DNA of 32,000 nucleotides from Panacagrimonas sp. (GTDB taxonomy: Bacteria; Pseudomonadota; Gammaproteobacteria; Nevskiales; Nevskiaceae). A program made the translations under genes and the position numbers. Where the stretch lies: contig JBQTHL010000056.1 in the NCBI GenBank assembly GCA_052389915.1, positions 15,481 through 47,480 on the forward strand, written 5' to 3'. Shown here one piece after another: positions 6,698 through 28,424 of the stretch (position 1 is the stretch's first letter; each line of letters opens with the position of its first letter). Below the pieces are notes generated by a model. That model saw nothing but the letters and a program-made list of their open reading frames with translations, was not told the origin of the DNA and did no database searches.

Positions 6698-7852
6698 TTA
6701 CAGGCCAAGCAGCAGCTTGGACAGGACGTTCTTCTGGATCTCGTTGGTGCCGCCGTAGATGCTGCTGGCGCGCAGGAAGTTGTAGCGCGTGGTCGCGCCG
6801 CGGAAGACTGTGTGGCCTTCGCCTTCCTCGCTGAGCCAGGGCAGGGCGGACAGGCCGCCGAGTTCCACCTGGGCCTCGGAGATTGCTTGCTGCAACTCGG
6901 CGCCCTTGATCTTGAGGCCGGAGGATTCCGGTCCCGGCGCCTTGCCACGCGCCAGGCGATCCAGAGTGCGCAGGTTGGTGTACTCCAGCGCCATCAGGTC
7001 CACTTCCAGCTCGGCGAGGCGGCGCGCCACGACCGGGTCATCGGCCAGCGCGGGCTCGCTGCCGATCGCCTCGCGCAGCAGGGCGAGCTGATACTTGCTG
7101 TCGGAGACGCCCGCGATGGCGGTGCGCTCGTGGCCGAGCAGGTACTTGGCGATGGTCCAGCCTTCGCCTTCCTTGCCCACGAGGTTTTCCGCCGGCACCT
7201 TGACATCGGTGAAGAACACCTCGTTCAAGTGGTGATGGCCGTCGATGGTCATGATCGGCCGGATCTCGATGCCGGGCGTCTTCATGTCGACCAGCAGGAA
7301 GGAGATGCCCTGCTGCTTGGGCACCTCGTTGTTGGTGCGGCACAAGCAGAAGATGTAGCTCGCCCAGTGGCCCTGCGTGGTCCAGATCTTCTGGCCATTG
7401 ACCACGTAGTGATCGCCGGAGCGCACCGCCTGCGTCTTGAGGCTGGCCAGGTCCGAGCCCGAACCGGGCTCGGAGTATCCCTGGCACCAGAACACCTCGC
7501 CTCGCGCGATCGGCGGCAGGTTGCGGGCCTTCTGCTCGTCATTGCCGTAGTGCATCAGCACCGGGCCGAGCATGGCTAGGCCGAATGGGCTGCCGACCGG
7601 CGCACCGGCCAGCGCGCGCTCCATGTCGAAGATATAGCGCTGCGTGGCGCTCCAGCCCGGCCCGCCGTACTCCTTGGGCCAGTTGTACGCCAGCCAGCCC
7701 TTGGCGCCGAGCTTGCGCTCCCAGGCGGTCTGCGTCGCGAGGTCGCTGGGCAGGCCGATTTCCGGACCGGCCTTGGGCGGCACGTTAGCACGCAGCCAGT
7801 TGCGGACTTCGGCGCGAAACGCCTCGTCCTCTGGCGAAAAATCCAGATCCAT
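6698..7852 (-). CDS. Acyl-CoA dehydrogenase (probable catalytic subunit of a heteromeric pair)
   Basis: 384 aa. Contains CQGYSEPGSGSDLASLKT, LLGHERTAIAG and SSIYGGTNEIQKNVL. ATG 7852 has GGAG 9 nt upstream. Confidence 0.92.
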   Translation of the reverse strand: MDLDFSPEDEAFRAEVRNWLRANVPPKAGPEIGLPSDLATQTAWERKLGAKGWLAYNWPKEYGGPGWSATQRYIFDMERALAGAPVGSPFGLAMLGPVLMHYGNDEQKARNLPPIARGEVFWCQGYSEPGSGSDLASLKTQAVRSGDHYVVNGQKIWTTQGHWASYIFCLCRTNNEVPKQQGISFLLVDMKTPGIEIRPIMTIDGHHHLNEVFFTDVKVPAENLVGKEGEGWTIAKYLLGHERTAIAGVSDSKYQLALLREAIGSEPALADDPVVARRLAELEVDLMALEYTNLRTLDRLARGKAPGPESSGLKIKGAELQQAISEAQVELGGLSALPWLSEEGEGHTVFRGATTRYNFLRASSIYGGTNEIQKNVLSKLLLGL

Positions 7853-14090: not shown

Positions 14091-15548
14091 CTATGCGAAC
14101 CAGCGCAAGGTCATCGCGATGAGGCGCTTCACGCGTTCGGTGTAGGGTGGATAGAACATCCGAACCAGCCCGATGCGGGTATCGGCGACGGCGCGAGCGT
14201 GTGAGAACGTGCGGAAGCCGAACTCGCCATGCGTGCTGCCAAGGCCTGAATGGTTGACGCCACCGAACGGCAGCAGTGGGTGCAGGGCCTGCACGACGGT
14301 GTTGTTGACGCAGGCGCCACCCGAGGAGGTGCGGTCCAGCACGCGGCGGATGCGTGCACGGTCCTTGCCCCAGATGTACAGCGCGAGCGGCTTTTCGCCG
14401 CCGTTGATACTGTCGATGACCTCGTCGAGTTCGCCAAACCGGATCACCGGCAGCAGCGGCCCGAAGATCTCTTCCCGGAGGATGGCGGCGTCGTCCGGCA
14501 CTCGTTCCAGGATCGTTGGTGAGACGTAGCAGTGCTCTTCCCGCACGTCACCACCGACGGCGACGGTTGCGCCACGCTGACGCGCATCGTCCAGCAGTCG
14601 CCGCACGCGGGAGGTGTGGCGGGCGTTGACGATGCGCGCGAGATCGGGCGACAGGAAACGCGCCTCGTCATCCTTGCCGAAGACTTCCGCCAGCCGCTGG
14701 CGCAGCAGGTCCAGGAACTCGTCGGCGACCGAGGCGTGTACAAACAGGTGATCGGGCGCGATGCAGGTCTGCCCGTTGTTCATGAACTTGGACCAGCACA
14801 CGTTGTGCGCGGCCGCCTTGAGGTCGGCGCTGGCGTCGATGATGGTCGGGCTCTTGCCGCCCAACTCCAGGGTGACGCTGGTGAGATGGTGCGAAGCGGC
14901 AGCCATCACCACCTTGCCCAGAGCGGGTGCCCCGGTGAAAAAAATGTGGTCGAAGGGAAGGTCGAGCAGGGTCTTGGCGAGTTCTGCGTCGCCCTGGAAC
15001 AGCGCGACTTCTTCTGCAGGAAACGTCGCGTCGATGATTGTCTGCATCTGCGCCGACAGATGTGGCGTCATCTCTGAAGGTTTTACGATGGCGGTGTTGC
15101 CGGCGGCGAGCGCCAGCACCAGCGGGCAGAAGCTGAGATTCACCGGGTAATTCCACGGCGAAACGATCAGGCAGCGGCCGCGCGGCTGGTATTCGATGCG
15201 TCCCTGAGTGCCGGCCATCAGCGGCGAGAACCCGACGCGAGTCGGCTTCATCCAGCGCTTGAGTCTGCGCATGGCCATGTTCGCTTCGGATACGACGGTG
15301 AAGATTTCCGTCAGGTCCACTTCGACTTCCGGCTTGCGGAAGTCGGCCGCCGCCGCGGCGCGAATGGCGGGTGCTGCCGCCAGAACCGCGTCGCGCAGTC
15401 TGCGGATACGTTCGATCCGCTCCACGGCGGTGGATGTGCGCCAGCGCAGAGCGGTGGGCCGCTGCGCCTCGAAAGTGGCTAACACCCGTTCTGCCAGCGG
15501 GTCCTGGACCGGCGTGCTGGGCACCGGAATCTTCGAGGGAGCGTTCAC
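14091..15548 (-). CDS. NAD(P)-dependent aldehyde dehydrogenase, class-3/coniferyl-aldehyde-DH-like (fatty/aromatic aldehyde type)
   Basis: 485 aa. Contains SPWNYPVNLSF, IVKPSE, the catalytic Glu block LELGGKSP and the catalytic Cys block NNGQTCIAPDHLFVH. GTG start at 15548 has GGAG 8-11 nt upstream. It is divergent from the CuMMO operon. Confidence 0.93.
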   Translation of the reverse strand: MNAPSKIPVPSTPVQDPLAERVLATFEAQRPTALRWRTSTAVERIERIRRLRDAVLAAAPAIRAAAAADFRKPEVEVDLTEIFTVVSEANMAMRRLKRWMKPTRVGFSPLMAGTQGRIEYQPRGRCLIVSPWNYPVNLSFCPLVLALAAGNTAIVKPSEMTPHLSAQMQTIIDATFPAEEVALFQGDAELAKTLLDLPFDHIFFTGAPALGKVVMAAASHHLTSVTLELGGKSPTIIDASADLKAAAHNVCWSKFMNNGQTCIAPDHLFVHASVADEFLDLLRQRLAEVFGKDDEARFLSPDLARIVNARHTSRVRRLLDDARQRGATVAVGGDVREEHCYVSPTILERVPDDAAILREEIFGPLLPVIRFGELDEVIDSINGGEKPLALYIWGKDRARIRRVLDRTSSGGACVNNTVVQALHPLLPFGGVNHSGLGSTHGEFGFRTFSHARAVADTRIGLVRMFYPPYTERVKRLIAMTLRWFA

Positions 15549-15775
15549 GTACGAGTCTCCATGTGAGGAGGAAGCGATTGCGGACCACTAAGGTTCATAT
15601 AAGGCTCATAGGGTTCATTCGCCCACAATAAATCAGTCAAGCGTTTGTTAGATAGTGCGGTAACGACGTTCTGCACATCGGCGCGATCAGGACGACAAAT
15701 AATATAGTGAATGTACGTACTGCGCACTACTAAATAGGCGGGTCCGATCGAAATCCAGGACGATAGCAATGTGCG

Positions 15776-15793
15776 TAGCAGAGCTATCTGCTA
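15776..15793. promoter_or_regulatory. 7-4-7 inverted repeat TAGCAGA-GCTA-TCTGCTA abutting the putative -35 of the CuMMO operon
   Basis: Read directly, with perfect arms. It ends 1 nt before TTGACT (15794-15799). Its left arm overlaps by 2 nt the shared 12-mer GCAATGTGCGTA (15766-15777). Confidence 0.3.
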
Positions 15794-15823
15794 TTGACTT
15801 TTCCATGCAAGCTCAATTATGGT
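15794..15823 (+). promoter_or_regulatory. Putative sigma70-type promoter of xmoCAB (TTGACT - 18 nt - TATGGT)
   Basis: The -35 TTGACT (15794-15799) matches consensus at 5/6. TATGGT (15818-15823) matches at 4/6. The spacer is 18 nt. This would give a 5-prime UTR of about 65-70 nt before ATG 15897. By-eye prediction only. Confidence 0.35.
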
Positions 15824-15896: not shown

Positions 15897-16691
15897 ATGA
15901 GTTCCGTCAGCCAAAGCACGACATACCAGTCCCCCACGGCTCCCTGGGCCAAGCTTTTCCTGATTCTGGTCGGAGTTGGAATGCTTTACACCGGCTACCG
16001 GCTGTATCAAAACGCTACCGCCTTCACTGTTGGGCTCGACTACTTTTCGCCGGAATTCCAGAGCACTTGGATGATGCTGCTGTATATCCAGTTGCCGGTG
16101 CTGGTCGCGATGGGCACGGGAATCGTCGGATGGATCTGGCACACGCGTGATCGCCAGTTGGACAAGCTCGCGCCGGTCGAGGAGCTGCGACGCTACTTCG
16201 TGCTGCTCGGGTACATCATGATCTTCGCGATCGTGGCCTATCTGACGGCGTCGCCGTTCACCGAGGCGGATGCGGCCTGGCATCAGGTGACGGTGCGCGA
16301 TACCGATTTCACGCCCACCCACATCACGCTGTTCTACTTCGGCATTCCCATGTTCATCATGAGCGGTGTGGCGGCGTTCGCCTACGCCCGTACACGGCTG
16401 CCACAGTTCGCGAACAAGCTGTCCCTGCCGTTTGCGCTGGTGGTTGCAGGGCCGATCATGATCATGCCCAACCTGGGGCTGAACGAATGGGGTCACACGT
16501 TCTTCTACGCCGAGGAACTGTTCGCCGCGCCGATTCACTGGGGCTTCGTGCTGCTCGGCTGGGCCACGTTTGCGGCCGGCGGACTGGTGGTGCAGATCCT
16601 CACCCGGGTCGTCGAACTGACCAAGGTGATCGGTGAGCCCGCGCCGAGGGTGGAATCGGCGAAGGCGATGGCAGTCACAGCAGCAGCCTGA
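15897..16691 (+). CDS. xmoC: Copper membrane monooxygenase subunit C (PmoC/AmoC family)
   Basis: ORF 15849..16691 trimmed to ATG 15897 (MSSVSQ...), with AGGAGG at 15883-15888. Contains EADAAWHQVTVRDTDFTPTHITLFY (D-x3-H-x12-H) and PNLGLNEWGHTFFYAEELFAAPIHWGF (N-x3-H-x13-H). These have the same spacing as the PmoC CuC and CuD ligand sets of M. capsulatus. Confidence 0.93.
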   Translation: MSSVSQSTTYQSPTAPWAKLFLILVGVGMLYTGYRLYQNATAFTVGLDYFSPEFQSTWMMLLYIQLPVLVAMGTGIVGWIWHTRDRQLDKLAPVEELRRYFVLLGYIMIFAIVAYLTASPFTEADAAWHQVTVRDTDFTPTHITLFYFGIPMFIMSGVAAFAYARTRLPQFANKLSLPFALVVAGPIMIMPNLGLNEWGHTFFYAEELFAAPIHWGFVLLGWATFAAGGLVVQILTRVVELTKVIGEPAPRVESAKAMAVTAAA

Positions 16692-16714
16692 TAACGATCC
16701 TTGGTCTTGCGTCA

Positions 16715-16742
16715 GGCGAGGGCGCCCCTCGGCGCCCTCGCC
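16715..16742 (+). other. Perfect 12-bp GC hairpin 24 nt after the xmoC stop (mRNA stability/processing or attenuation element; no U-tract)
   Basis: GGCGAGGGCGCC-CCTC-GGCGCCCTCGCC read directly. It lies in the 192-nt xmoC-xmoA spacer. Confidence 0.5.
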
Positions 16743-16883
16743 GGAGAGCGACGAGACTAACGCGACGCTTTACGACTTGACCGCTCGCGGGCGGTCAGAA
16801 CATTGCGTGAATAATTAGAAACGCGGAAATCAGGCTGTCCCGCTCGCGGGCTTTCTGCTTGACGCTTTGAGGCGGAGGCCCCC

Positions 16884-17657
16884 ATGAAAGCCGTAGATGA
16901 TCTCGACAGTTCTGCCTCGGGTGCTTACGGGCTCAGCTCGTCAAAAGAGCAGCACAAGGCCTACGTCCAGGCGGACCTGCTGGTCATCCCCCTGATCGTG
17001 CTGCTGTTCATGGGCATCTTCAGTTTTCACTTCGCCCTGCTCGTCGGCGACTGGGATTACTGGGTGGACTGGCGCGACCGCCGCTGGTGGCCGCTGGTGA
17101 CGCCGCTGGCGCTCTCAGTACTGCCGGGAGTGTTCGGGTTTCTGCTGTGGGACAAGCTTCGTTTGCCGCTGGGCGGGACGCTCACGATCCTGTGCCTGAC
17201 CCTCGCGGCCTGGATCAGCCGCTATCTCAATTTTTATCTGTTCGCGGATTTCCCGATGAACTTCGTGTGGCCCTCGACCTACATCGGGCTGGGTCTGATT
17301 CTGGACTGCATGCTGCTGCTCACTCGCAGCTTCTTCTGGACCGGGCTGTTCGGCGGGTTTGCCTTCGGTCTGCTGATCTACCCGCTCAACTGGTCGATGC
17401 TGGCGCCGTTCCAGGTGCCGTTGGAACTCAACGGCACCATGCTTACTGTGGCCGATCTCATGGGCTACGAGTACATCCGCACGGCGATTCCCGAATACGT
17501 CCGCATCATCGAGGAGTCAACGCTCAGAACCTTCGGGTCAGCGGTGACGCCGCTGACGGCAGTGTTCGCCGGATTCCTGAACATCATGAACTACTGGTTC
17601 TGGCTGTGGATCGGCTACCTGGGTGCCAAGGCACTCTGGATCCGGAAGATCGTCTGA
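16884..17657 (+). CDS. xmoA: Copper membrane monooxygenase subunit A (PmoA/AmoA family)
   Basis: 257 aa. GDWDYWVDWRDRRWWPLVTP, NFVWPST and YEYIRTAIPEYVRIIEESTLRTFG align by eye with PmoA blocks ([40 protein letters not shown]). GGAGG lies at 16874-16878. Confidence 0.95.
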   Translation: MKAVDDLDSSASGAYGLSSSKEQHKAYVQADLLVIPLIVLLFMGIFSFHFALLVGDWDYWVDWRDRRWWPLVTPLALSVLPGVFGFLLWDKLRLPLGGTLTILCLTLAAWISRYLNFYLFADFPMNFVWPSTYIGLGLILDCMLLLTRSFFWTGLFGGFAFGLLIYPLNWSMLAPFQVPLELNGTMLTVADLMGYEYIRTAIPEYVRIIEESTLRTFGSAVTPLTAVFAGFLNIMNYWFWLWIGYLGAKALWIRKIV

Positions 17658-17667
17658 GGGCGCGACC

Positions 17668-18906
17668 ATGAAACTCCTACGTGCTTTTCTGCTTCCGCTG
17701 CTCGCACTGTGCGCGGGCTACACCCCGACGTTGCTGGCGCACGGCGAACGCGCGCAGATGCCGCAGTTGCGCATGCGCACGGTTCACTGGATCGACGTGC
17801 AGGCCTCCGCTTCCAAGCTGGCCATCAACGACATCGTCAAGATCAGCGGCAAGTTCATGCCGTCGAAGTACTGGCCGCACCATGTGAACTCGATCGAGGA
17901 AACGGCCTTCCTCAACATCGGCGTGCCCGGCCCTGCGTTTGTGCGTCTGGACTCGCGCGTCAACGGCGTGCCGATGATCCGCTCCACTTCGTTTCGCAAG
18001 GGCGAGACCTACGATTTCGAGATCACGCTCAAGGCGCGCAAGGTGGGTCGTTATCACGTCCACACCGTCATCAATGTCGAAGGCGCCGGCCCCATGATCG
18101 GCCCCGGCATGTGGGTCGAAGTGGCGGGCGACGAAGCGGCCTTCCAGAACACCGCCAAGACCCTGCTTGGCGAAACCATCGATCTGGAAACCTACGGCCT
18201 GGGCAACGTCATGTTCTGGTCCGCGCTGTGGTTTGCGGTGGGCCTGTCCTGGTTCATTTACTGGCTGACCAAGTGCCCCATCGTCGTGCCCCGCTTCAAG
18301 CGCACCGCAGAACTGGGCGTCGAGGCCGATCAGATGATCACCCCGATGGACCGGCGCATCGGCGGCATCTTCCTGGTGCTGACCCTGAGCCTGATCGTCG
18401 GCGGCTATGTCTACGCCCAGGAAAAATGGCCCATCACCACCCCTCTCCAGACCGGCAAGATCGACGTTCCCCCGCTCGATCAGCCGCCGACCCCGATCTC
18501 CATCAAGCTCATCGAAGCCCGGTACCGTATTCCCGGCCGCAGCTTCAGGATGGAATTCGACGTCATCAACAACAGTGATCGCCAGGTGACCATCGGCGAA
18601 TTCGCCGCCGGCAACCTGCGCTTCATCAACGCCAAGGTGCTCGACGTCAAACCCAAGGACGAGCACGACCTGGTGGCTTCCGATGCCCTGCGCGTGGAAG
18701 GTGGGCCGGTTGCTGCGGGAGCCACTCAGCGCGTCGTGATCTACGCCGACGACGCCATGTGGGAAACCGAGCGCATGACCACCATGATTTCCTCGCCCGA
18801 TGCGGTCGTGGCCGGCGTGCTGTTCTTCTTCGAGGAAGGCGGCAAGCGGCACTTGGTGGAATTTGGCGGCCCCATGATTCCCGACTTCGGTATGAGCAAG
18901 AGCTGA
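17668..18906 (+). CDS. xmoB: Copper membrane monooxygenase subunit B (PmoB/AmoB family), secreted precursor
   Basis: ORF 17623..18906 trimmed to ATG 17668. The signal peptide MKLLRAFLLPLLALCAGYTPTLLA is followed by HGERAQMPQLRMRTVHWID. YHVHTVINVEGAGPMIGPG aligns along its length by eye with M. capsulatus PmoB (HGEKSQAAFMRMRTIHWYD; WHVHTMMNVQGGGPIIGPG). It has two central TM helices and a C-terminal cupredoxin-like half. Confidence 0.95.
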   Translation: MKLLRAFLLPLLALCAGYTPTLLAHGERAQMPQLRMRTVHWIDVQASASKLAINDIVKISGKFMPSKYWPHHVNSIEETAFLNIGVPGPAFVRLDSRVNGVPMIRSTSFRKGETYDFEITLKARKVGRYHVHTVINVEGAGPMIGPGMWVEVAGDEAAFQNTAKTLLGETIDLETYGLGNVMFWSALWFAVGLSWFIYWLTKCPIVVPRFKRTAELGVEADQMITPMDRRIGGIFLVLTLSLIVGGYVYAQEKWPITTPLQTGKIDVPPLDQPPTPISIKLIEARYRIPGRSFRMEFDVINNSDRQVTIGEFAAGNLRFINAKVLDVKPKDEHDLVASDALRVEGGPVAAGATQRVVIYADDAMWETERMTTMISSPDAVVAGVLFFFEEGGKRHLVEFGGPMIPDFGMSKS

Positions 18907-19523
18907 TGATGCGTCGTCTCGCCCGCGTCCTGGTGTTCGGGTCCGCCGTGCTCGCAACCGCGCCTGCAGGCGCGCACGGCGGCGTGTCCATGGAAGACGA
19001 CAATTGCATCATGAAGATCGGTGCGATGACCGCGCATTTCACCGGCTACCAGCCGGAAAAGCGCGCGACGCAGGAGTTCTGCGAAGACATCCCGGAACTC
19101 GGGCGCGCCATCATTGTCATTGACTACGTCAGCGCCGCGCTGCGTCAGTATGAAGTCGAGTTCCGCGTGCTCAGAGATACTAAGGATCTAAAGTCGCGGG
19201 GACGCTACGAAGACCTCGGAACGCCGGCGGACATCGCAGCAGCCACCCTGATCCACGTGCCGCCGCAGGTGTATCCGCGAGGCACGCTGACCTTCGATCA
19301 GGGCTTCGATGCGCCGGGCTGGTACATCGGGATGATCACCGCCAAGGATCCAGCCACCGGCACGTTGTTGCACTCGGTGTTCCCGTTCAAGGTCGGCGTG
19401 CACAGCCTGTGGCGCTACGCCCCCGCCTTCATGATCGTTTTCGCGCTCGCAGGACTGGCTTATCGACTCACCGGTCGCAAGACAGCTACAGCTAAAGCTA
19501 AAGCTAAAGCAAAAGCAACATGA
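18906..19523 (+). CDS. PmoD/AmoD-like membrane-anchored periplasmic protein (putative copper protein; family assignment tentative)
   Basis: ORF 18759..19523 trimmed to ATG 18906, which overlaps the xmoB stop (TGATG). The signal peptide MMRRLARVLVFGSAVLATAPAGA is followed by HGGVSMEDDNCIMKIGAM. After that comes a soluble domain of about 150 aa, one C-terminal TM helix (YAPAFMIVFALAGLAYRL) and a basic tail. This architecture and its position directly after subunit B match PmoD. Confidence 0.65.
   Translation: MMRRLARVLVFGSAVLATAPAGAHGGVSMEDDNCIMKIGAMTAHFTGYQPEKRATQEFCEDIPELGRAIIVIDYVSAALRQYEVEFRVLRDTKDLKSRGRYEDLGTPADIAAATLIHVPPQVYPRGTLTFDQGFDAPGWYIGMITAKDPATGTLLHSVFPFKVGVHSLWRYAPAFMIVFALAGLAYRLTGRKTATAKAKAKAKAT
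19485..19520 (+). repeat. Hexanucleotide tandem repeat: GCTACA (GCTAAA)x3 GCAAAA GCAACA
   Basis: Read directly. It encodes the tail ATAKAKAKAKAT of the PmoD-like protein and runs into the copC ATG (19520). Its codon choice is AT-rich and atypical for this high-GC window. Confidence 0.85.
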
Positions 19524-19900
19524 GGACGCAGTCACCCCGCATGGCTTTTTGGCTACTCATCGCATGCTCGCTCGGCGCTTACGGATCTGCTGTGTTCGCG
19601 CATGCAGGGCTGGTCAGTTCGGAACCCGGCCGGCGTGCAGTGCTGGCCGCGGCTCCGAAAGAAATTAGATTGTGTTTCAACGAAAACGTCGAAGCGAAGT
19701 TTTCCAAGGTCAGCTTGTACAACGCCGATGGCACCGAGATTCCGCTCGGTGAGCTGAAGGCCGACCCGCAAAAGCCCGCCTGTCTGACTGCGTCGGTCGA
19801 TTCGCTGCCCGGCGGAAGCTACACGATCAAGTATCGTGTTCTGTCGGTCGATGGCCATGTCGTGGATTACGGCTACGGGTTCAAATTAAGCCTGCCCTGA
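19520..19900 (+). CDS. copC: CopC-domain periplasmic copper-binding protein
   Basis: 126 aa. The signal peptide ends ...SAVFA and is followed by HAGLVSSEPG (N-terminal His, as in the HxxLxxSxP CopC start). The C-terminal YRVLSVDGHVVDYGYGF carries the D/H ligand block. ATGA overlap with the upstream gene. Confidence 0.9.
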   Translation: MRTQSPRMAFWLLIACSLGAYGSAVFAHAGLVSSEPGRRAVLAAAPKEIRLCFNENVEAKFSKVSLYNADGTEIPLGELKADPQKPACLTASVDSLPGGSYTIKYRVLSVDGHVVDYGYGFKLSLP

Positions 19901-19907
19901 GGCCGGG

Positions 19908-21869
19908 GTGATCGAATTCCTGTCCGCGGCCTCTCGACTCATCGCGACGGCCGGCGCAGCGTGGATCATCGGTTCGACCTGCTTCAGCCTATGGTGCGCC
20001 CGGATGGATCCGCAGCGTGCAGCCCTGCGCGCGGCGCTGCCCCTGCTGATCGCCGTCGGTCTGGTGGTTCTGGGCCATGCCGGCCTGATGTGGACCCAGG
20101 CGCTCTCGCTCGCCCCCCTCGGCTCCGGTTCGACCGATTGGGAAAGCCTGATCAACGGCACCCATGTCGGGCGAGTGTGGCGGATACGCGCCAGCGTCGC
20201 CGTCCTGCTGCTGTTGTCGGCGCTCGTGGCGACGACATGGGGGCGGGCGCGATGGGCTTGCGCCTCGATGGCGGCGACGTATCTCGCGCTCGGACCCTGG
20301 GGTGGACACGCAGCCGGCGCGGAATCGGCTTGGCAGGTGATGCTGCCCAATGTCATCCATGTTCTCGCCATCTCGGTCTGGGTCGGCGCCCTGCCGTCCT
20401 GGTTCGTGGCGGTGCGACGTTTTGCTCGCGCCGATCCGTCCGCGCTGCCCACGCCGGTTCTTGCGGCCGCCCTGGAGCGATTCTCTCGGTTGGCGATGGT
20501 GTTGATGATCGTCATCGTCGTCACGGGCGTCTGGCTGGCGGATCTCTACATCGACACGCAGGGGGACCTGCTGGGGACGCGCTACGGCGCGCTGATTCTC
20601 GGAAAGCTCGGCTTGCTGGCACTTGCGCTGCTGTTCGCCAACCGGTTGCGAACACGGTTTCTTCCCATGCTGAGATCGGCCGGCGAGGCGACTGGTCAGC
20701 GTCGCCTTGCCGCCTCGGCCTTGCGTCATTTCTGCCCTGAACTGGCCGCGGCTTCCGGCGTCCTGATCTGTGCAGCCTGGCTGGCGCAGACCACCCCAGC
20801 ACTGCACGAGCCCGCGCCGAAGTGGTGGCTGCCGTTCCGCTGGTCATTAGACGCAACCTGGCCGGATTCGTCGCTGCGGGTGTGGTTTCTGGCAGCCTTC
20901 GCAGCCTTGATCCTCGCGGGAGCCGCGGCAACCGGCTCGCGACGTAAAACGCTGCGCATTCCCTCAATGCTGTTGGCGGTAGCCGCGACCAGCGTGTTGG
21001 CCTGGGCGTTCGCCGTCCCGGCTTATCCGAATACCTATCGGCGCTCCCAGGTGCCGTATCTGACGCTGTCCGTGGCCGGCGGGCGCGCGCTGTTCGCCGA
21101 GCACTGCACGGCCTGCCACGGCGCGGGAGGACTCGGAGACGGACCGTTGGCAGCGAAGCTGCCGAAGCCGCCGGCAAATCTGAGCGAGCCGCACACGGCG
21201 CTGCATACGGCTGGCGACATGCACTGGTGGCTCACACACGGTATTCCCGAAAGCGGAATGCCCGCCCTGGGTGCTGTGCTCTCCGAGGACGACCGCTGGG
21301 ACCTGATCAACTTCATGCGCGCCTTCTCGCAAGGTTTCGAAAGCCGGGTGCTGCGCGCCCGCGTGGTTCCCGGCCTGGCCTGGCTTGGGGCGATCAATTT
21401 CTACATCGAGGGCGTGCCGGGACCGGGGGAACTCAAGGGCTATCGCGATACACACAATGTCTTGCTGACCTTTCTCGGCGGACCACATGCCGAAGCTCGC
21501 GCGCGAACGCTCGCCGCTGCGATGCCTGAGTTCCAGTCGCGCCGCACGCAGATTCTCGCGGTGCCGTTGGGCGATGTTCGCCTGCCTGCCGACTTGCCTT
21601 ATCCCGTGCTGAGCACCGCCGCTGCCGAGCTCTGGTCCGCCTACGAGTTGCTCGCGCGCACGGTCGGCGACCGCGGCCTGCCGGACCGGCTGGGCATGGA
21701 TTGGACGGATGCGGAATTCCTCATCGATCGTTTCGGCTACGTGCGTGCGCGCTGGATTGCGCAGGACGACCCGGAGGGGTGGACCGACCCCGTCAGGCTG
21801 TACCCGGAACTGGATCGGCTCAATGCCGAACCGCGCTTGCGTCCGCCCCCGGACGATCACATTCACTGA
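19908..21869 (+). CDS. copD: CopD-family membrane protein fused to a c-type cytochrome domain and a C-terminal thioredoxin-fold-like domain lacking CxxC
   Basis: 653 aa with a GTG start 7 nt after the copC stop. The N-terminal ~300 aa are polytopic (CopD-like), followed by two more TM helices. The haem motif is FAEHCTACHGAGGLGDGP (Cys400/Cys403/His404, nt 21105-21119), with GIPESGMPA as the likely axial Met. The C-terminal ~170 aa contains NVLLTFLGG...ILAVPLG...AEFLIDRFGYVRARWI, which resembles the peroxiredoxin/TlpA fold but has no Cys pair. Confidence 0.85.
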   Translation: MIEFLSAASRLIATAGAAWIIGSTCFSLWCARMDPQRAALRAALPLLIAVGLVVLGHAGLMWTQALSLAPLGSGSTDWESLINGTHVGRVWRIRASVAVLLLLSALVATTWGRARWACASMAATYLALGPWGGHAAGAESAWQVMLPNVIHVLAISVWVGALPSWFVAVRRFARADPSALPTPVLAAALERFSRLAMVLMIVIVVTGVWLADLYIDTQGDLLGTRYGALILGKLGLLALALLFANRLRTRFLPMLRSAGEATGQRRLAASALRHFCPELAAASGVLICAAWLAQTTPALHEPAPKWWLPFRWSLDATWPDSSLRVWFLAAFAALILAGAAATGSRRKTLRIPSMLLAVAATSVLAWAFAVPAYPNTYRRSQVPYLTLSVAGGRALFAEHCTACHGAGGLGDGPLAAKLPKPPANLSEPHTALHTAGDMHWWLTHGIPESGMPALGAVLSEDDRWDLINFMRAFSQGFESRVLRARVVPGLAWLGAINFYIEGVPGPGELKGYRDTHNVLLTFLGGPHAEARARTLAAAMPEFQSRRTQILAVPLGDVRLPADLPYPVLSTAAAELWSAYELLARTVGDRGLPDRLGMDWTDAEFLIDRFGYVRARWIAQDDPEGWTDPVRLYPELDRLNAEPRLRPPPDDHIH

Positions 21870-21887
21870 AACACTCAGGAGACAACC

Positions 21888-22388
21888 ATGCAACGATCCC
21901 CCGCTCTTTTTATTCTCGCGCTGCTCGCCAGCAGCGTATCGCTTGGCGCGCGGGCAGGCGGCGACGCGGCGCACGATCACCATCAGCATCACCAAGGGCA
22001 CGGACAACACCCGGCCGATGGCGCGGCGGGCAAGGGTGCCACCGAGGTTCCACCGCTGCGCATCCTGTTTCCCGAGTCCGGCGCCAAGGTCGGGACGCAG
22101 CTTGCCGTGGTGTTCGAAACGCCCGGCGAAATGGCACGGCTGACCATGAGCGCGCCGGTGGTGGGTACTCATCTGCATATCGAAACCGACGGTATTTCCC
22201 TGATGCCGAGTGAGAACCAGCTCATCCGGCTCGGTGGAAACCGTTACGTGTTCGTGTTCGACCTGCCGGTCAGCGCGGGCGAGCGCAGCCTGCGGGTGTA
22301 TTGGTCGGATGGCATGCACCGGACCATCGATTCGAGCATGCAGACGGTCAAGGTGATCGTCGAGGGCGCGATCAGTCCTGGAAAGTGA
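21888..22388 (+). CDS. Secreted His-rich protein, DUF4399-like (putative periplasmic metal binding)
   Basis: 166 aa with AGGAG RBS. The signal peptide MQRSPALFILALLASSVSLGARA is followed by the His cluster HDHHQHHQGHGQH (nt 21972-22010). The blocks VGTHLHIETDG and GERSLRVYWSDGMH resemble the DUF4399 GHHHL..D / GEH.L.L...D..H pattern as I remember it. Confidence 0.6.
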   Translation: MQRSPALFILALLASSVSLGARAGGDAAHDHHQHHQGHGQHPADGAAGKGATEVPPLRILFPESGAKVGTQLAVVFETPGEMARLTMSAPVVGTHLHIETDGISLMPSENQLIRLGGNRYVFVFDLPVSAGERSLRVYWSDGMHRTIDSSMQTVKVIVEGAISPGK

Positions 22389-22611
22389 AGTAGGAAGGGA
22401 ACGGCGGCAGGAGAATCCTGTCGCGCGCCTGCGCGTCCGACGCTTCGCAGGTCGACGCTGATCGCTTGCGCACGGCGTCCACCGCCCGAGCGCGTCCACG
22501 AGGCAGGCACCCGCTGGTCGGGGCGCTTCGCCCGCCGGTCCGAACTGGCATCAATCCAATCTATTCCCGGTATGATGTTGTTCTAACAAACATTTGGTAT
22601 GGAGAGTAAGG

Positions 22612-25110
22612 ATGTTTTGGAGTAGGTCTGCATGTCGCTGGTCAATCATTCCTGCGTTGCTGCTCGCAGGGCCGGCCGCGAACGCCGTCGAGTACGACTT
22701 CTCGGCAGGAGGCTTTGATTTTTCGTCAGTGTTGAACAATACCCTCACGCTTGGCGCTGCGTGGAGAATCGAGGGTCGATCAAATGATCTGGTCGGCAAG
22801 TCCAACCTCGATCCCGGGGTTTGTTCCGGTCCCTACCAGTCCTGCCAGGGCCTGCACCGCCTGCAGAACTTTCCCGCCCAACGGCTGGCGTCTGCGCCGG
22901 GTATGGCCTCCATCAACTTCGACGACGGCAATCTCAACTACAACAAGGGCGACATCATCCAGGCGCCGCTCAAGCTCTCGCAAGACCTTACCGTCAGCTT
23001 CGGAGACTACGGCATCTTTGTTCGAGGACTTGGCATTTTCGACCAGGCGAACTACTTCGACTTCCGCAATTTCTACCCCAACCAGATCACCGCCGAGAAC
23101 GTTGGCAGCGTGGGTATTGTCGGCAGCCCGACGTCCAACCGGTACCTGCCGCGGGTGTACGGTCCTGGGGCTCCGGTTCGCAGTGACCGGGCGGAAGACG
23201 AGGCGCAAGAAATCGGGCTCAGATACGACCTGCTCGATGCCAATTTCTACGGGAGTCTGCCTTTTGTCGGCGAACGCGAACTGACCTTTCGGCTCGGCCG
23301 GCAGACAGTGAATTGGGGCCAGAGCACGGTCGCGGTCGTCAACAGCGTCAACCAGGCGCAGCCGGTGAACGCGAACAGCCTTTACCGGCTCGGTTTCGGT
23401 CTGCTGGAGGAGCTCTTCGTCCCGGTGGGCATGGCGCGCTTCAGCACAGAACTGGTGAACGACGTCGGCGTCGAGATCTACTACCAGTACGAATGGGACC
23501 CGGTCGAGATTCCGACGCCTGGCAGCTACATGTCCTTCGTCGACATCGGTACCGACAATCTGCGCGGTACGGTCAACGCGGCGTTCGGTGGCGCGGCGGA
23601 CGACCCCGATCACGTCGGTGCGCCGCTGGACAACCCGCTCACCCTGATCACGCCAACCACCTTGACCCTGGATCGGCGCGGCGACAACGAGGCCCGCGAC
23701 CAGGGCCAGTACGGCATCGGCCTGAAGTATTACGCCGAGGAACTCAATAACGGCACCGAGTTCGCGGCTTACTTCATGAACTACCATTCGAAGCTGCCGT
23801 ACGTGAGTTTCTATTCCACCGATCCCAGTTGCGCCCGTCGCGAGGGCAGTTCCCGGGGCATCGACGCCACGAACACTCTCGAATTCCTGGCCGGGTGTCC
23901 AAACCTACCGGTCACCGCGCCGTCGGCGTCATCGCAACTGGCTCTCGATCTGGTCACTCTGGCGGCACAGAGGCCGGGCGCGCTCGCTGATCTGGGCGCC
24001 GGGACATTGGACCTGGGAGCCATTCTGGGCGGCGTGGGCGGACTATTGCTGCCGCAGCCTGGTCAGCAAATCAGTGACGCCGTGCCGCTGGACACGGCCC
24101 AGATCCAGCTCGAATACCCCGAAGACCTGAAGATGTTCGGGTTCAGCTTCACCACCACCGCTGGCGAGCTGTCCCTGCAGGGCGAGCTGTCCTACCGACC
24201 GAAACTTCCGCTGCAGGTTGCCCTGATCGATCTGGCCTTTGCCTCCTTCGGTCCCACTCTGACCCGCTGCCACGACCGGAACCTGGGTTGCCTGGGCGCC
24301 TCTGCGGGACTCGGGTTCAACGAGGCGGGGAGCTACGTGGTCTACGACGGCAACAACTTCACCGACGCCAGCGGCAACAACCCCTACCCTGATGCAATCA
24401 ATCTGGTCGTGGGCGCGGCGCCGGGTTCGGCGCGTTCCTTTCCCAACTTCATCGTGCCCTACCGCGGCGGTGTGGTAGGCGAGAATCCGCCGAACAGCTA
24501 CATCCGCGGCTGGATTCCTGGAAAGGTGGCGCAGTACAACTTCGGAGCGACGCAGGTGCTCGGCCCGAACGAGAACTGGATTGCTGCGGACCAGGTGATC
24601 CTGCTCTACGAACTGGCGGCAACCCATGTGCTCAACATGCCGGATTTCGACAAGCTGCAGATCGAAGGCCCGCTGACGGCGACCACGCACGCCAGCGCCG
24701 GCGCCGATGGCAGTGGTGCGGATGGATCGCGCCTAGCCTGTTCGACCAATCCCTCGTGCTCGGTGGGTCCGGACGGACTGCGCTTCAACCCTTACCAGGC
24801 ACCGCGTAGTGCATTCGCCGATGCATTTTCCTGGGGCTATCGCATCGTTGGGCGCATCGCCTACGAGTCGGTGTTCCCTTCGATCAGCATCCAGCCGTTG
24901 TTCATCTGGTCACAGGACATCGGTGGCAACTCGCCGGGACCGGCCGGCAATTTCGTGGAAGGCCGCAAGACCCTGAACTTCCTGCTGGAAACGCGCTACG
25001 GGAAGTCCTACTCGTTCACTATCGCCTACAACAGTTTCTTCGGCGGCGGTAAGGACAACCTTTACGAGGATCGCGACAACCTCGGCTTTTATGTCAAGTA
25101 CCAGTTCTGA
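22612..25110 (+). CDS. DUF1302-family outer-membrane beta-barrel protein
   Basis: ORF 22594..25110 trimmed to ATG 22612, with GGAGAG at 22601-22606. The signal peptide ends ...LLLAGPAANA. LTLGAAWRIEGRSNDLVG and INFDDGNLNYNKGDIIQAPLKLSQDL are typical DUF1302 N-terminal blocks. The C-terminus ...LGFYVKYQF ends in an aromatic residue, as OMP signatures do. Confidence 0.8.
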   Translation: MFWSRSACRWSIIPALLLAGPAANAVEYDFSAGGFDFSSVLNNTLTLGAAWRIEGRSNDLVGKSNLDPGVCSGPYQSCQGLHRLQNFPAQRLASAPGMASINFDDGNLNYNKGDIIQAPLKLSQDLTVSFGDYGIFVRGLGIFDQANYFDFRNFYPNQITAENVGSVGIVGSPTSNRYLPRVYGPGAPVRSDRAEDEAQEIGLRYDLLDANFYGSLPFVGERELTFRLGRQTVNWGQSTVAVVNSVNQAQPVNANSLYRLGFGLLEELFVPVGMARFSTELVNDVGVEIYYQYEWDPVEIPTPGSYMSFVDIGTDNLRGTVNAAFGGAADDPDHVGAPLDNPLTLITPTTLTLDRRGDNEARDQGQYGIGLKYYAEELNNGTEFAAYFMNYHSKLPYVSFYSTDPSCARREGSSRGIDATNTLEFLAGCPNLPVTAPSASSQLALDLVTLAAQRPGALADLGAGTLDLGAILGGVGGLLLPQPGQQISDAVPLDTAQIQLEYPEDLKMFGFSFTTTAGELSLQGELSYRPKLPLQVALIDLAFASFGPTLTRCHDRNLGCLGASAGLGFNEAGSYVVYDGNNFTDASGNNPYPDAINLVVGAAPGSARSFPNFIVPYRGGVVGENPPNSYIRGWIPGKVAQYNFGATQVLGPNENWIAADQVILLYELAATHVLNMPDFDKLQIEGPLTATTHASAGADGSGADGSRLACSTNPSCSVGPDGLRFNPYQAPRSAFADAFSWGYRIVGRIAYESVFPSISIQPLFIWSQDIGGNSPGPAGNFVEGRKTLNFLLETRYGKSYSFTIAYNSFFGGGKDNLYEDRDNLGFYVKYQF

Positions 25111-25160: not shown

Positions 25161-25190
25161 TGGAAAGGCAAATCGCAATGTGCGTATACT
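25161..25190 (+). promoter_or_regulatory. Putative promoter of the TonB2-type operon (TGGAAA - 18 nt - TATACT), overlapped by the shared 12-mer and an inverted repeat
   Basis: The hexamers were read by eye (4/6 and 5/6 to consensus). GCAATGTGCGTA (25175-25186) overlaps the spacer and the -10. AATGTGC (25177-25183) and GCACATT (25197-25203) form a 7-bp inverted repeat with a 13-nt spacer. Confidence 0.3.
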
Positions 25191-25309
25191 CACTCTGCAC
25201 ATTTAAAAGAGACTTCGAGCCGGCCTGAGAGGGATCCGTGCATTGAAGTTTCGATCAGTGCGGTGGCTTGCCACCGCGCGTTTGTCGGCGGGGAGGAGTC
25301 CCCTGGAAC

Positions 25310-26092
25310 ATGATCGTATTCCCAAAGTGGAAGGCTGTCGCCGCGCGGATGCTCGGCCTGTCGCTGGCGGTTGCCGTGCCCTGCGCGCCGGCTCAGGACG
25401 CTGCCGGCAAGGCGCTGGACGCGGTGGTCGATGGCAACCGCGCCGCGAGAACGTCCCAGCAGAGGGTCGATAGCCTCGACGATCAGACCAAGTCCATGCT
25501 CGAGCGCTATCGCGCCGCGAGCTGGCAGGCGCAGCAACTCACGGTCTATGCCAAGCAGCTCGGCGAACTGGTGTCCGCGCAGGAGGGCGAACGCAGCTCG
25601 ATCGAGCGTCAGATCACCGAGATGGAGCGCACCGAGCGCGAGCTGCTGCCGCTGATGCTGCGCATGGTCGAGGGGCTGGAGAAATTCATCGCGCTGGACC
25701 TGCCGTTTCTGGCGACCGAGCGCCGCGAGCGGCTGGACACGCTGAAGAAGCTCATGTCCGATCCTGAGGCGAACAACGCCGAGAAGTTCAAGCGCCTTCT
25801 GGAAGCCTGGCAGATCGAATCGGAGTACGGACGTTCGATCGGCACCGAGCGCGCCGAGGTCGAGGGCCGCACCGTCGATGTGCTGCGTCTGGGGCGCACG
25901 GCGCTGTACTACCTGTCGGCCGATGGCAAGCAGGCGGGAACCTGGAACAGCAGCAGCGGCGCCTGGGAGGCACTCCCGCATCAGCACGTCGCTCAGGTGC
26001 GGCATGGCCTGCGCATGGCGCGGGAAACGGCCGCGCCGGATCTGCTGAGGTTGCCTGTCGCTGCCGCCGCTGCGGCCGGAGCCGCGCCATGA
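25310..26092 (+). CDS. DUF3450-family periplasmic coiled-coil protein (TtpB-like TonB2-system component)
   Basis: ORF 25268..26092 trimmed to ATG 25310, with GGGAGGAG at 25291-25298. It has a signal peptide and a long coiled coil. The blocks ELLPLMLRMVEGLEKFIALDLPFL and EKFKRLLEAWQIESEYGRSIG are typical of DUF3450. ATGA overlap with the next gene. Confidence 0.8.
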   Translation: MIVFPKWKAVAARMLGLSLAVAVPCAPAQDAAGKALDAVVDGNRAARTSQQRVDSLDDQTKSMLERYRAASWQAQQLTVYAKQLGELVSAQEGERSSIERQITEMERTERELLPLMLRMVEGLEKFIALDLPFLATERRERLDTLKKLMSDPEANNAEKFKRLLEAWQIESEYGRSIGTERAEVEGRTVDVLRLGRTALYYLSADGKQAGTWNSSSGAWEALPHQHVAQVRHGLRMARETAAPDLLRLPVAAAAAAGAAP

Positions 26093-27477
26093 GGCGTGAC
26101 TGCGCATTCTGGCGCGGGCTCATCGCGGCGGCGTTGATGCTCGGCACCGGCACCGGCGCCTTGCACGCGCAGGCGCCTTCGCCCTCGCAGAAAGGCATGG
26201 ACGAACTGCTCAAGCAGATCCGCCAGGGGACGCAGGAGGCCGCCAAGCTCAACGCAGAACGCGAGCAGCGTTTCCTGCGCAACAAGAACGAGCAGGCCGC
26301 TTTGCTGGCCAAGGCCGAGGCGGATCGCGCTGCCGCCGGCGCGCGGGCCGATCAGGCAAAAGCGCAATTCGCGGCCGGCCAGGCCCAGATCGCCGAACTC
26401 AAGAAGCGCCTGACCGAGCGCCTGGGCGACAGCGGGCAGATGTATGCGGCGATCGCGCAGTCCGCCGGCGAGTTCCGCAGCCAGATCGCCGGCTCGCTGG
26501 TTTCGGCGCAATACCCGGATCGCGCCGAGTTTCTGGATCGCATCGCACAGGCGGGCGAGGTGCCGGGCGTGGCCGACCTGGAGCAGCTCTGGTTCCTGTA
26601 CGCACAAGAGGCCGCCGAGAGCGGGCGGGTGGTGCGCTTTCAGGCCGAGGTGCTCGATGCCTTGGGAGAAAAATCGAAGACCGAGGTGATCCGGGTGGGC
26701 CAGTTCACGGCGCTGACCGAAGAGGGCTATTTGACCCTGCAAGCCGGGACCGCAGCGCTCGCACTGCTGCCGCGCCAGCCCGACGGCAATTCGGGACTCG
26801 TCGAGGATTTCAGCGCGGCGGGCGAGGGCTTGCACACGGTGCTGATCGACCCCTCGCGCGGCGACCTGCTGCGCAAGATCGCCGAGCGGCCCACCACGAT
26901 GGAGCGCATCCATCAGGGTGGCGAGGTGGGCTACGTCATCATCGCCATCGGTGTGATCGGCGCGGTGCTCGCGGCCTACCAGTTCGGGTACCTGCTGCTG
27001 GTGGGTGTGAGGGTGCAGCGGCAGTTGCGGGACGTGGCGCAGCCGCGCGAGGACAATCCGCTGGGTCGCGTGCTCGCCAGCCTGAAGATCGACGCCACGC
27101 AGGATCCGGAAGTGCTGGAGACGCGCCTGTCCGAGGCGGTGCTGCGCGAGACGCCCAAGCTGGAGCGATTCCAGTCGCTGCTGCGCATGATCGTCGCTGC
27201 GGGTCCGCTGCTGGGCCTGCTCGGCACGGTGATCGGCATGATCATCACCTTCCAGGTCATCACCGAGGTCGGTGCGGGCGATCCCAAGCTGATGGCCGGT
27301 GGCATCTCGCAGGCCATGATCGCGACGGTGCTCGGCCTGATCATCGCTATCCCCTTGCTGTTCGTGAACAGCTTCCTGATGACCCGTTCGCGCAGCATCA
27401 CGCAGGTTCTCGACGAGCAGGCCGCCGGGCTGCTGGCGCAGCGCCTGGAAGCGGCAGGCGGGCGCCAGCATGCTTGA
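26089..27477 (+). CDS. Long MotA/TolQ/ExbB-family proton-channel protein with large N-terminal periplasmic coiled-coil domain (TtpC-like)
   Basis: 462 aa. The C-terminal channel block is AAGPLLGLLGTVIGMIITFQ...GGISQAMIATVLGLIIAIPLLF. The N-terminal ~270 aa are extra-membranous and coiled-coil-rich. Confidence 0.85.
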   Translation: MRRDCAFWRGLIAAALMLGTGTGALHAQAPSPSQKGMDELLKQIRQGTQEAAKLNAEREQRFLRNKNEQAALLAKAEADRAAAGARADQAKAQFAAGQAQIAELKKRLTERLGDSGQMYAAIAQSAGEFRSQIAGSLVSAQYPDRAEFLDRIAQAGEVPGVADLEQLWFLYAQEAAESGRVVRFQAEVLDALGEKSKTEVIRVGQFTALTEEGYLTLQAGTAALALLPRQPDGNSGLVEDFSAAGEGLHTVLIDPSRGDLLRKIAERPTTMERIHQGGEVGYVIIAIGVIGAVLAAYQFGYLLLVGVRVQRQLRDVAQPREDNPLGRVLASLKIDATQDPEVLETRLSEAVLRETPKLERFQSLLRMIVAAGPLLGLLGTVIGMIITFQVITEVGAGDPKLMAGGISQAMIATVLGLIIAIPLLFVNSFLMTRSRSITQVLDEQAAGLLAQRLEAAGGRQHA

Positions 27478-28009
27478 GCTGATCGTCCAGTCGTTCACGG
27501 AGCAGTACGACACGCTCGGCGAGTTCCTCGATGCGGGCGGCTGGGTGACGCGCTGGATCCTCGCGGCCTGTGCCGTCCTGCTCACCGTCGTGTTCGAGCG
27601 CCTCTGGTATCTGTGGCGCATCTATCCGCGCGTGCGTGCCGCGACCCTAGCCGGGTGGAACGCGCGCAGCGAGCGCCACTCCTGGGTCGCGCACCGCATC
27701 CGCACGGCGCTGATCAGCCAGTTGCGCATGGGCCTGGAATCCGGCCTGCCCATCATCAAAGTGATGGTGCCGATGGCGCCGCTGCTCGGCCTGCTCGGCA
27801 CCGTGATGGGCATGCTGCAGGTGTTCGACGCGATGGCCTTCAGCAAGGGCGGCGACACGCGCGCGATGGCCGACGGCATCTCGCACGCGATGATCGCGAC
27901 CATGGCCGGGCTGGTGGTGAGCGTGATTGGGCTGTTCTTCAGCAACCTGTTCGCCTCGCGGGTGCGGGTTGAGTCGGAACGGCTGAATGATTTGATTGCG
28001 CCGGGCTGA
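27470..28009 (+). CDS. exbB: MotA/TolQ/ExbB proton-channel protein
   Basis: 179 aa. Contains MAPLLGLLGTVMGMLQVF...DGISHAMIATMAGLVVSVIGLFF. It overlaps the upstream gene by 8 nt. Confidence 0.9.
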   Translation: MLELIVQSFTEQYDTLGEFLDAGGWVTRWILAACAVLLTVVFERLWYLWRIYPRVRAATLAGWNARSERHSWVAHRIRTALISQLRMGLESGLPIIKVMVPMAPLLGLLGTVMGMLQVFDAMAFSKGGDTRAMADGISHAMIATMAGLVVSVIGLFFSNLFASRVRVESERLNDLIAPG

Positions 28010-28016
28010 TGCGCAC

Positions 28017-28421: not shown

Positions 28422-28424
28422 CGC

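Follow-up and report, generated by a model that had tools for sequence, protein, structure and literature searches.

Genes and the shared word in the window

The 32,000-nt stretch analysed here (the window; G000:C56:15481-47480) belongs to a 5.46-Mb assembly of Panacagrimonas sp. with 64% G+C, for which we use the handle G000. It carries the genes of a copper membrane monooxygenase (CuMMO), those of a TonB2-type energiser and a 12-base word, GCAATGTGCGTA, that occurs upstream of both. Our analysis reads this word as part of a putative 21-bp dyad-symmetric operator, of which the window holds three candidate sites (O1, O2 and O3), and points to a MerR-family protein encoded beyond the window's right end, MerR-a, as the likely regulator. 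Positions without a contig or locus prefix are those of the window.

The xmoCAB genes, a PmoD-like gene, copC, a copD-cytochrome c gene and hyp166 form one cluster on the plus strand (15897-22388, xmoC beginning at 15897), which lies 3' of O1 and O2 and is kept as a block in relatives. Divergent from xmoC, on the minus strand, is an aldehyde dehydrogenase gene (14091-15548) that may share the O2 control region. On the other side of the cluster a gene for a DUF1302 outer-membrane barrel (22594-25110, plus strand) stops 70 nt short of O3 and is separated by a 200-nt spacer from the TonB2-type operon, which runs on the plus strand 3' of O3 and comprises DUF3450, ExbB-like, ExbB, ExbD, TonB and TPR-DUF1329 genes (25310-31788). 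This operon is a paralog of the main TonB2 operon of the genome, located on contig C77 (76% identity). The gene context given by the first-pass annotation of the window matches our annotation. So does its remark that the window encodes no regulator other than a TetR protein (1792-2490); we rejected this TetR as the regulator of interest, as its gene adjoins those for an electron transfer flavoprotein and an acyl-CoA dehydrogenase and has no dyad nearby.

In that annotation the shared word was taken as a common regulator-binding site, which would make one regulon of the monooxygenase and the TonB2 system, and the probability of its sharing by chance was put below 0.01. Both copies of the 12-mer are present (15766-15777 and 25175-25186, plus strand), as is the related string AATGTACGTA (15710-15719). 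Over the whole genome the 12-mer occurs three times, the third copy (C80:46236) lying in coding-like DNA, and the 10-mer core AATGTRCGTA six times, so this is not a dispersed repeat. We compared the two upstream regions with a set of 1901 intergenic regions (451 kb), which was derived from a crude home-made gene call and calls for caution with every figure drawn from it. A word of at least 12 bases is common to the xmoC upstream region and 17 of 1899 other intergenic regions (0.9%), and to the DUF3450 upstream region and 12 of 1899 (0.6%). The estimate is thus right for a single pair, but it ignores all the intergenic pairs that are implicitly compared in the window: with the same gene call, 64% of the 32-kb windows in the genome contain at least one intergenic pair with a common word of this length. 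Because of this, sharing of the 12-mer alone is no more than chance would give, and we discarded it as significant by itself; the case must therefore rest on other, independent evidence.

A 21-bp dyad is conserved at xmoC promoters

We searched the relatives of this organism and the whole order (187 genomes) and found xmoC orthologs of the window type in approximately 17 genomes. With tandem copies counted, these provide 19 xmoC promoter regions from eight genera and two families, which we aligned ungapped with a nearly invariant CTATTGAC, the -35 box, as the anchor. All 19 promoters have in common a -10 box, TAnnnT, 17-18 bp 3' of the -35 box. Apart from this -10 box, conservation is confined to one block, at -27 to +5 relative to the -35 box, and this block is a palindrome with the consensus GTGCGTAGT-N3-ACTACGCAC, 21 bp long, which stops 2 bp before TTGAC. 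It is preceded by an A/T-rich, GCAAWT-like flank, and AAT/ATT often flank the dyad. Since the information content drops to the background level upstream of -30 relative to the -35 box, the dyad is a discrete element. Its centre is approximately 13 bp upstream of the -35 box, that is, at about -48/-49 from the predicted transcript start. Individual orthologous sites read GTACGTAG-tacgt-CTACGCAC (locus L072), GTGCGTAG-tgaaa-CTATTCAC (L074), ATGCGTAC-taaag-ATACGCAC (L075) and GTGCGCAG-cgaaa-CTACGTGC (L002).

Phylogenetic footprinting of the xmoC upstream region, which the first-pass annotation had put forward as a check, thus shows the dyad kept beside the -35 box in all 19 orthologous promoters. 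The motif itself had to be redefined: it is not AATGTRCGTA but the dyad GTGCGTAG-N5-CTACGCAC with A/T flanks. Judged from the alignment, the 12-mer combines the A/T-rich flank with one of the two half-sites of this 21-bp dyad-symmetric operator.

The genome encodes three xmoC paralogs. Besides that in the window there are a 69%-identical one, which has no dyad promoter, and a 49%-identical one; these two lie at C74:6089-6808 and C56:91577-92299. A distant paralog group (45-49% identity; L014-L018 and C56:~91250-91280 in G000) has a different conserved element at the -35 box, TTGACAAnnnTATC(A/G)A, and a divergent gene upstream; this palindrome could be the operator of another regulator.

Dyads and predicted promoters inside the window

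The proximal xmoC dyad, O1 (15771-15791), reads GTGCGTAG-cagag-CTATCTGC and keeps the conserved layout, with 2 bp between it and the -35 box and a centre at about -48/-49. The first copy of the 12-mer consists of the flank GCAAT and seven of the eight bases of the O1 left half-site. The predicted sigma-70 promoter of xmoC follows on the plus strand (15794-15823, TTGACT-N18-TATGGT); its -35 box (CTATTGAC) and -10 box (TAnnnT) are both conserved in the orthologs. A further palindrome inside O1, TAGCAGA..TCTGCTA, was dismissed as the element of interest, since only G000 has it and the orthologs do not conserve it. The distal dyad, O2 (15707-15727), reads GTGCGCAG-tacgt-ACATTCAC on the minus strand, in a register that is uncertain. 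It contains AATGTACGTA, which had been taken for a third copy of the motif: the string does lie inside a real third dyad, but its register differs from that of the 12-mer. From centre to centre O1 and O2 are 64 bp apart, or approximately six helical turns.

Upstream of DUF3450, O3 (25180-25200) reads GTGCGTAT-actca-CTCTGCAC on the plus strand, and its best match to the motif is in the minus orientation, GTGCAGAG-tgagt-ATACGCAC. Both half-sites are present, with a 13-bp GTGC-to-GCAC spacing and AAT/ATT flanks on either side; the second copy of the 12-mer is the flank plus an O3 half-site. The only sigma-70-like match in the DUF1302-DUF3450 spacer is TGGAAA-N18-TATACT (25161-25190, plus strand), whose -10 box lies within O3. 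A weak -35-like hexamer, TTAAAA (25203-25208, plus strand), stands exactly 2 bp 3' of O3 and would, as read from the sequence, give a layout like that at xmoC. The string CTGCACAT, which had been described as a reverse-complement partner in both regions, does occur in both (15671-15678 and 25195-25202). The copy at 25195 is indeed the second, right half-site of O3, but the plus-strand copy at 15671 is in no detectable dyad, for which reason we ruled it out as a half-site and regard it as probably irrelevant.

Two other features of these regions stand apart from the dyads. Upstream of xmoC, G000, G002, G030 and G008 share the block TCAGTCAAGCGTTTGTTAGA (15634-15653) without a difference, and G084 has a nearly identical copy; the block is unique in the G000 genome and is not a dyad site. 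On the minus strand it contains a -35-like CGCTTGACTGA that faces divergent aldehyde dehydrogenase or thiolase genes, and it may serve as a second promoter or bind a different regulator. In the DUF1302-DUF3450 spacer, 30 nt before the start codon of DUF3450, there is a GC-rich hairpin at 25258-25279 (GUGCGGUGGC..GCCACCGCGC; -21 kcal/mol, z -2.2) with GUUUGU after it, which might act as a leader or attenuator.

A matrix built without this genome ranks the window sites at the top

We built a weight matrix from the 18 xmoC promoters of other genomes, with no G000 sequence included, and scanned it over the 10.9 million positions of G000. The three window sites rank first (O3), third (O2) and fifth (O1). 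With a uniform background, which removes the advantage of A/T, O3 is still first, scoring 24.6 bits against 20.5 for the next match. Extended by the 6-nt flank, O3 scores 28.4 bits, while the maximum in the reversed genome is 21.4 bits and the maxima of 20 column-shuffled matrices are 20.7 +/- 2.0 bits (highest 24.6), which places O3 approximately 3.9 standard deviations above them. The chance of the genome's top match landing in this 200-nt spacer is approximately 4e-5, or approximately 4e-4 if only the 451 kb of intergenic DNA is considered.

The best matches are also clustered: seven of the 13 best intergenic ones fall in four intergenic regions of a single 28-kb stretch (C56:31-59 kb). Across the genome the motif is rare, and its occurrences concentrate in intergenic DNA ahead of genes with related functions. 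We saw no genome-wide enrichment of the 5-nt gap between half-sites, which gave 48 matches where other gaps gave 48-68; it follows that the regulon is small and that the weak matches are mostly noise.

Further dyads in a downstream gene island

Apart from O1-O3, these seven matches comprise four dyads 22-27 kb downstream on the same contig (C56:53889, C56:53991, C56:58369 and C56:58714). We annotated the 20 kb beyond the window's right end as locus L077. Its first part, on the minus strand, encodes a pyrroloquinoline quinone (PQQ) alcohol dehydrogenase with a cytochrome c, a wax-ester synthase and an OmpA-like protein, and two of the dyads are in the intergenic region adjoining the OmpA-like gene; one of these, GTGCGCAT-ccaca-CTCTGCAC, is a near-twin of O3. 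Then come a ParD/ParE-like toxin-antitoxin pair, an RND/MMPL transporter gene (minus strand) and an intergenic region with the two remaining dyads, followed on the plus strand by DUF1329, DUF1302, a BNR/YCF48-like gene, two MerR genes and a P450 gene. The island extends over L077:1278-19417, that is, from 1.3 to 19.4 kb past the window's right end, and contains a second DUF1329-DUF1302-BNR set. Both dyads upstream of DUF1329-DUF1302 have orthologous copies in the genome G002, neither of which was used in training; on sequence grounds these copies are a second, independent footprint. Taken together, the predicted targets read as a hydrocarbon-oxidation island that combines a monooxygenase with the oxidation of alcohols and aldehydes, uptake through the envelope and its energiser, and the storage of lipids.

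Three of the sites form a subclass, GTGCAGAG-TGnnn-AT(A/G)(A/C)C(G/C)CAC, also written GTGCAGAG-TGnnn-ATnCGCAC: O3, the dyad at C56:53991 upstream of the OmpA-like gene, and the G002 site L019:5051-5077. The subclass might mark a second specificity, perhaps that of MerR-b, or common descent.

A different element is found at the main TonB2 (DUF3450) operons of relatives (L026-L031; C77:~6860-6940 in G000), where TGGATTTTA[AG]CG...GGGCAAGATG is conserved 60-90 nt upstream of the start codon. A copy of TGGATTTTAGC also stands directly upstream of DUF1329 in G000 (L077:11213-11225).

A MerR-family candidate regulator

MerR-a is encoded at C56:64044-64823, 16.6 kb past the window's right end, and has 259 amino acids, with 62% identity to the protein of genome G004. 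At eight of the 19 dyad-type promoter loci an ortholog (approximately 254 amino acids) is encoded at most 1.5 kb upstream of xmoC. The two genes are divergent in G004, G121 and G136 and point the same way in G055, G159, G047, G106 and G110; among the loci examined, orthologs are never beside xmoC types that have no dyad. Fifteen of the 17 genomes that have dyad-type xmoC encode an ortholog (at least 43% identity), in most cases on the same contig, and so do nine of the approximately 170 other genomes. As the relatives are not independent samples, this co-occurrence of MerR-a and the dyad is to be read as a pattern, not as a statistic. The pattern extends to G005, G007 and G010, which have the dyad-less xmoC type and no MerR-a ortholog. 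In G030 we found no ortholog at E <= 1e-45, and the xmoC dyad of this genome is the most degenerate (GGGCGCGT..ATGCACGC). In G000 itself MerR-a is directly followed by a 39%-identical paralog, MerR-b, and a third paralog is encoded at C56:83273-84052. Since dyads precede the operon that contains merR itself, the arrangement has the pattern of autoregulation.

MerR-a matches MerR helix-turn-helix (HTH) models (PF13411, E 1.9e-18), no curated equivalog was matched, and all matches to curated families were below their cut-offs. Its C-terminal half has no NCBIfam or Pfam match. The G000 protein contains no cysteine, and the alignment has no conserved cysteine column. The structural model (mean predicted local distance difference test score, pLDDT, 78) consists of an N-terminal winged helix and an all-helical C-terminal half. 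The modelled N-terminal domain superposes on GlnR-DNA and CadR-DNA complexes (TMt 0.81 and root-mean-square deviation 1.4 A with the GlnR-DNA complex 7tea_C) and also matches the structures of CueR and NmlR; the C-terminal half has no fold match in the PDB. Homologs in Algiphilus, Sinimarinibacterium, Nevskia, Solimonas, Hydrocarboniphaga and Fontimonas are all named only 'MerR family transcriptional regulator'.

A proposed local hydrocarbon regulon and the alternatives to it

We consider it likely that a single dimeric factor, with MerR-a the best candidate, acts on O1-O3 and at least four further dyads, and that the monooxygenase, envelope and alcohol-oxidation genes form one local hydrocarbon regulon. 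The regulon proposed in the first-pass annotation is supported to this extent: the dyad is kept in 19 promoters, O3 ranks first under a matrix trained without G000, and further dyads lie at hydrocarbon-related operons. From the linkage of merR to xmoC and its co-occurrence with the dyad we infer that MerR-a binds these sites. A MerR-a dimer would then occupy O1, O2, O3 and four or more downstream dyads, and the bound targets would be the xmoC operon, the DUF3450/TonB2 operon, the operon for the OmpA-like protein, wax-ester synthase and PQQ alcohol dehydrogenase, and the DUF1329-DUF1302-BNR-MerR-MerR-P450 operon. The probable effector is a hydrocarbon, or else an alcohol, aldehyde or acyl compound derived from one.

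At xmoC, a dimer centred at about -48/-49 could contact RNA polymerase and activate transcription, by analogy with TnrA, which acts from similar positions. Alternatively, because O1 and O2 are approximately six helical turns apart, looping between them might bring about repression. We lean slightly toward effector-dependent activation at xmoC. At O3, a dyad covering the -10 box of the only sigma-70-like promoter would be expected to repress, while one adjoining the weak -35-like TTAAAA might activate.

Several observations count against this reading. The right half of O1 (CTATCTGC) is weak; G081 has a good dyad, and no MerR-a ortholog was found in this 94%-complete genome; and nine genomes have the regulator without this xmoC type. 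A good part of the remaining difficulties concerns O3. If only the xmoC dyads were functional, O3 would be a chance look-alike and the TonB2 operon would not be co-regulated, as might be suspected from a shared 12-mer that is expected by chance at the level of the whole window. The core 21-nt O3 site scores 22.7 bits, a value that chance maxima also reach (24.1 in the reversed genome; 20.9 +/- 2.1 with column-shuffled matrices), and we therefore discarded the core score as proof; significance for O3 is limited to its flank-extended score, its location and the clustering. The dyad is in none of approximately 34 TonB2 loci of relatives (153 kb). The DUF1302-DUF3450 junction occurs only in this species and in a 98.9%-identical metagenome-assembled genome with an identical spacer, which is why O3 is not amenable to footprinting. 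Nor is there a convincing promoter 3' of O3 in an xmoC-like layout. However, O3 is the single best of the 10.9 million positions for a matrix that had seen nothing of this genome, and it is located inside the same gene island. Its half-sites, spacing and flanks all fit, its extended score stands well clear of the shuffled maxima, and it has a near-twin upstream of the OmpA-like/alcohol-dehydrogenase operon, all of which makes a chance look-alike quite unlikely. It is also unlikely, if slightly less so, that the dyads are real operators of one regulon bound by another protein, be it MerR-b, the third paralog or an unrelated regulator. Such a binder could be suspected from the presence of three paralogs on one contig, from the subclass formed by O3, C56:53991 and the G002 site (which could mean a second specificity), from the dyad of G081 and from an operator position that is atypical for MerR proteins, as the xmoC spacers are 17-18 bp and the dyad is upstream of the -35 box. 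Yet the MerR-a orthology group alone is found beside xmoC, proteins of the MerR-b type (37-42% identity) are widespread in genomes without this xmoC type, and no other regulator family recurs beside xmoC in the loci examined.

Two further explanations dispense with a DNA-binding regulator of this kind. The palindromes might act as RNA hairpins, in termination, attenuation or transcript stabilisation: O3 can form an 8-bp stem, and the O1 region was flagged as terminator-like (a stem, then TTGACTTTT). But the O3 hairpin is weak and no better than shuffles (-7 kcal/mol, z -1.3), that of O1 comes from the local palindrome absent from orthologs, and the dyad is upstream of the conserved -35 and -10 boxes and so probably untranscribed. 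What is conserved is sequence at fixed positions, not base pairing, and there is no Rfam match; we regard a role as RNA as very improbable. Least credible of all is an origin of the shared word from a dispersed repeat or mobile element, in favour of which the repetition itself, and nothing more, could be cited. Only three copies of the 12-mer exist in the 5.46-Mb genome, the two intergenic regions have no word longer than these 12 bases in common, their flanks are unrelated, and we did not find the many copies with extended similarity that mark repetitive extragenic palindromic (REP) or miniature inverted-repeat transposable element (MITE)-like repeats.

How hydrocarbon degraders switch on their copper membrane monooxygenases is essentially unknown, and regulation by MerR-a from the dyads would bear on this. 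What the analysis offers is an explicit operator sequence, with three sites mapped in the window and four or more close by, together with a specific protein as the candidate regulator. If true, the regulon would link the monooxygenase to DUF1302/DUF1329 uptake proteins and a TonB2 energiser, to the oxidation of alcohols and aldehydes and to the synthesis of wax esters, and would provide a functional context for several domains of unknown function as well as a part for hydrocarbon biosensors. A bolder proposal, which we entertain as a possibility rather than expect, is that MerR-a founds a new MerR subfamily, independent of metals and with a helical effector domain of a novel type. Such a protein might sense a hydrocarbon or its first oxidation products and, from dyads just upstream of the -35 box, co-ordinate a non-methane CuMMO with a dedicated TonB2 energiser, DUF1302/DUF1329 proteins and a PQQ alcohol dehydrogenase. 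Were this so, it would be the first defined regulator-operator pair for a CuMMO outside methane and ammonia oxidisers, and genetic evidence of a TonB system recruited to hydrocarbon uptake.

Comparison with known regulators

Canonical MerR operators lie inside a 19-20-bp spacer between the -35 and -10 boxes, and activation proceeds by DNA distortion. With MerR, CueR, CadR and SoxR the candidate shares the N-terminal HTH (PF13411) and the binding of a dimer, here proposed, to a dyad of approximately 20 bp. The xmoC promoters differ in both spacer and dyad position, as noted above, and we ruled out that the xmoC-proximal region is an over-long spacer of the MerR type, the spacers being 17-18 bp. 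O3, for its part, holds the -10 box of a promoter with an 18-bp spacer inside the dyad. MerR-a also lacks metal-binding cysteines, and with them the cysteine cluster of the metal and redox sensors.

TnrA and GlnR, the nitrogen regulators of Bacillus and Paenibacillus, are alike in their MerR-type winged helix and their interrupted inverted repeats; the box of TnrA-activated promoters is centred at about -49 to -51, much like the xmoC dyad. Both are MerR-family proteins that bind inverted repeats and activate or repress depending on the position of the site (PMC4475385; PMC9948412). The TnrA operator, however, is a 17-bp TGTNAN7TNACA box (PMC4475385), and the 21-bp GTGCGTAG-N5-CTACGCAC dyad does not fit the TnrA/GlnR operator. 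TnrA and GlnR are also small and controlled by glutamine synthetase, whereas MerR-a has 259 amino acids with a large helical C-terminal half, and they belong to another phylum and another physiology.

Similar in size and architecture are MlrA and BluR of Escherichia coli (243 amino acids, with a C-terminal domain of their own), which do not sense metals, as is presumably true of MerR-a. MlrA activates from an upstream site; BluR, whose site overlaps the -35 box, represses. The MlrA site is AAAGTTGTACA(12N)TGCACAATTTT, with A/T-flanked TGTAC/TGCAC half-sites (PMC3509220). These half-sites loosely resemble AATGTGC...GCACATT here and AATTGTAC in L072 and L073. In contrast, the GTRC cores of the MlrA site are spaced by 14 bp, not by 13 bp as here, and its targets are curli and biofilm genes. 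In the family-model search MerR-a had no family-level sequence match to MlrA/BluR, and the likeness to these proteins is one of overall size and architecture.

Beside the alkene monooxygenase genes of Xanthobacter Py2, Xaut_4864 encodes a MerR-like protein, without metal cysteine, that was assigned by position, and an AcoR-type gene beside hmoCAB of Mycolicibacterium chubuense NBB4 is a putative regulator, again by position (PMC8784404). Both are likened to MerR-a by gene position, and Xaut_4864 also as a MerR-like protein; they belong to other enzymes and clades and have no defined operator. Our literature search found no paper describing this regulator or operator motif, and a 2022 review of hydrocarbon sensing reports that CuMMO regulators had only been guessed from gene position and that the regulation of soluble di-iron monooxygenases (SDIMOs) and CuMMOs had been neglected (PMC8784404). 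Set beside these systems, what we describe is an ordinary transcription-factor regulon in kind, yet a new one, for a class of enzymes about whose regulation little is known.

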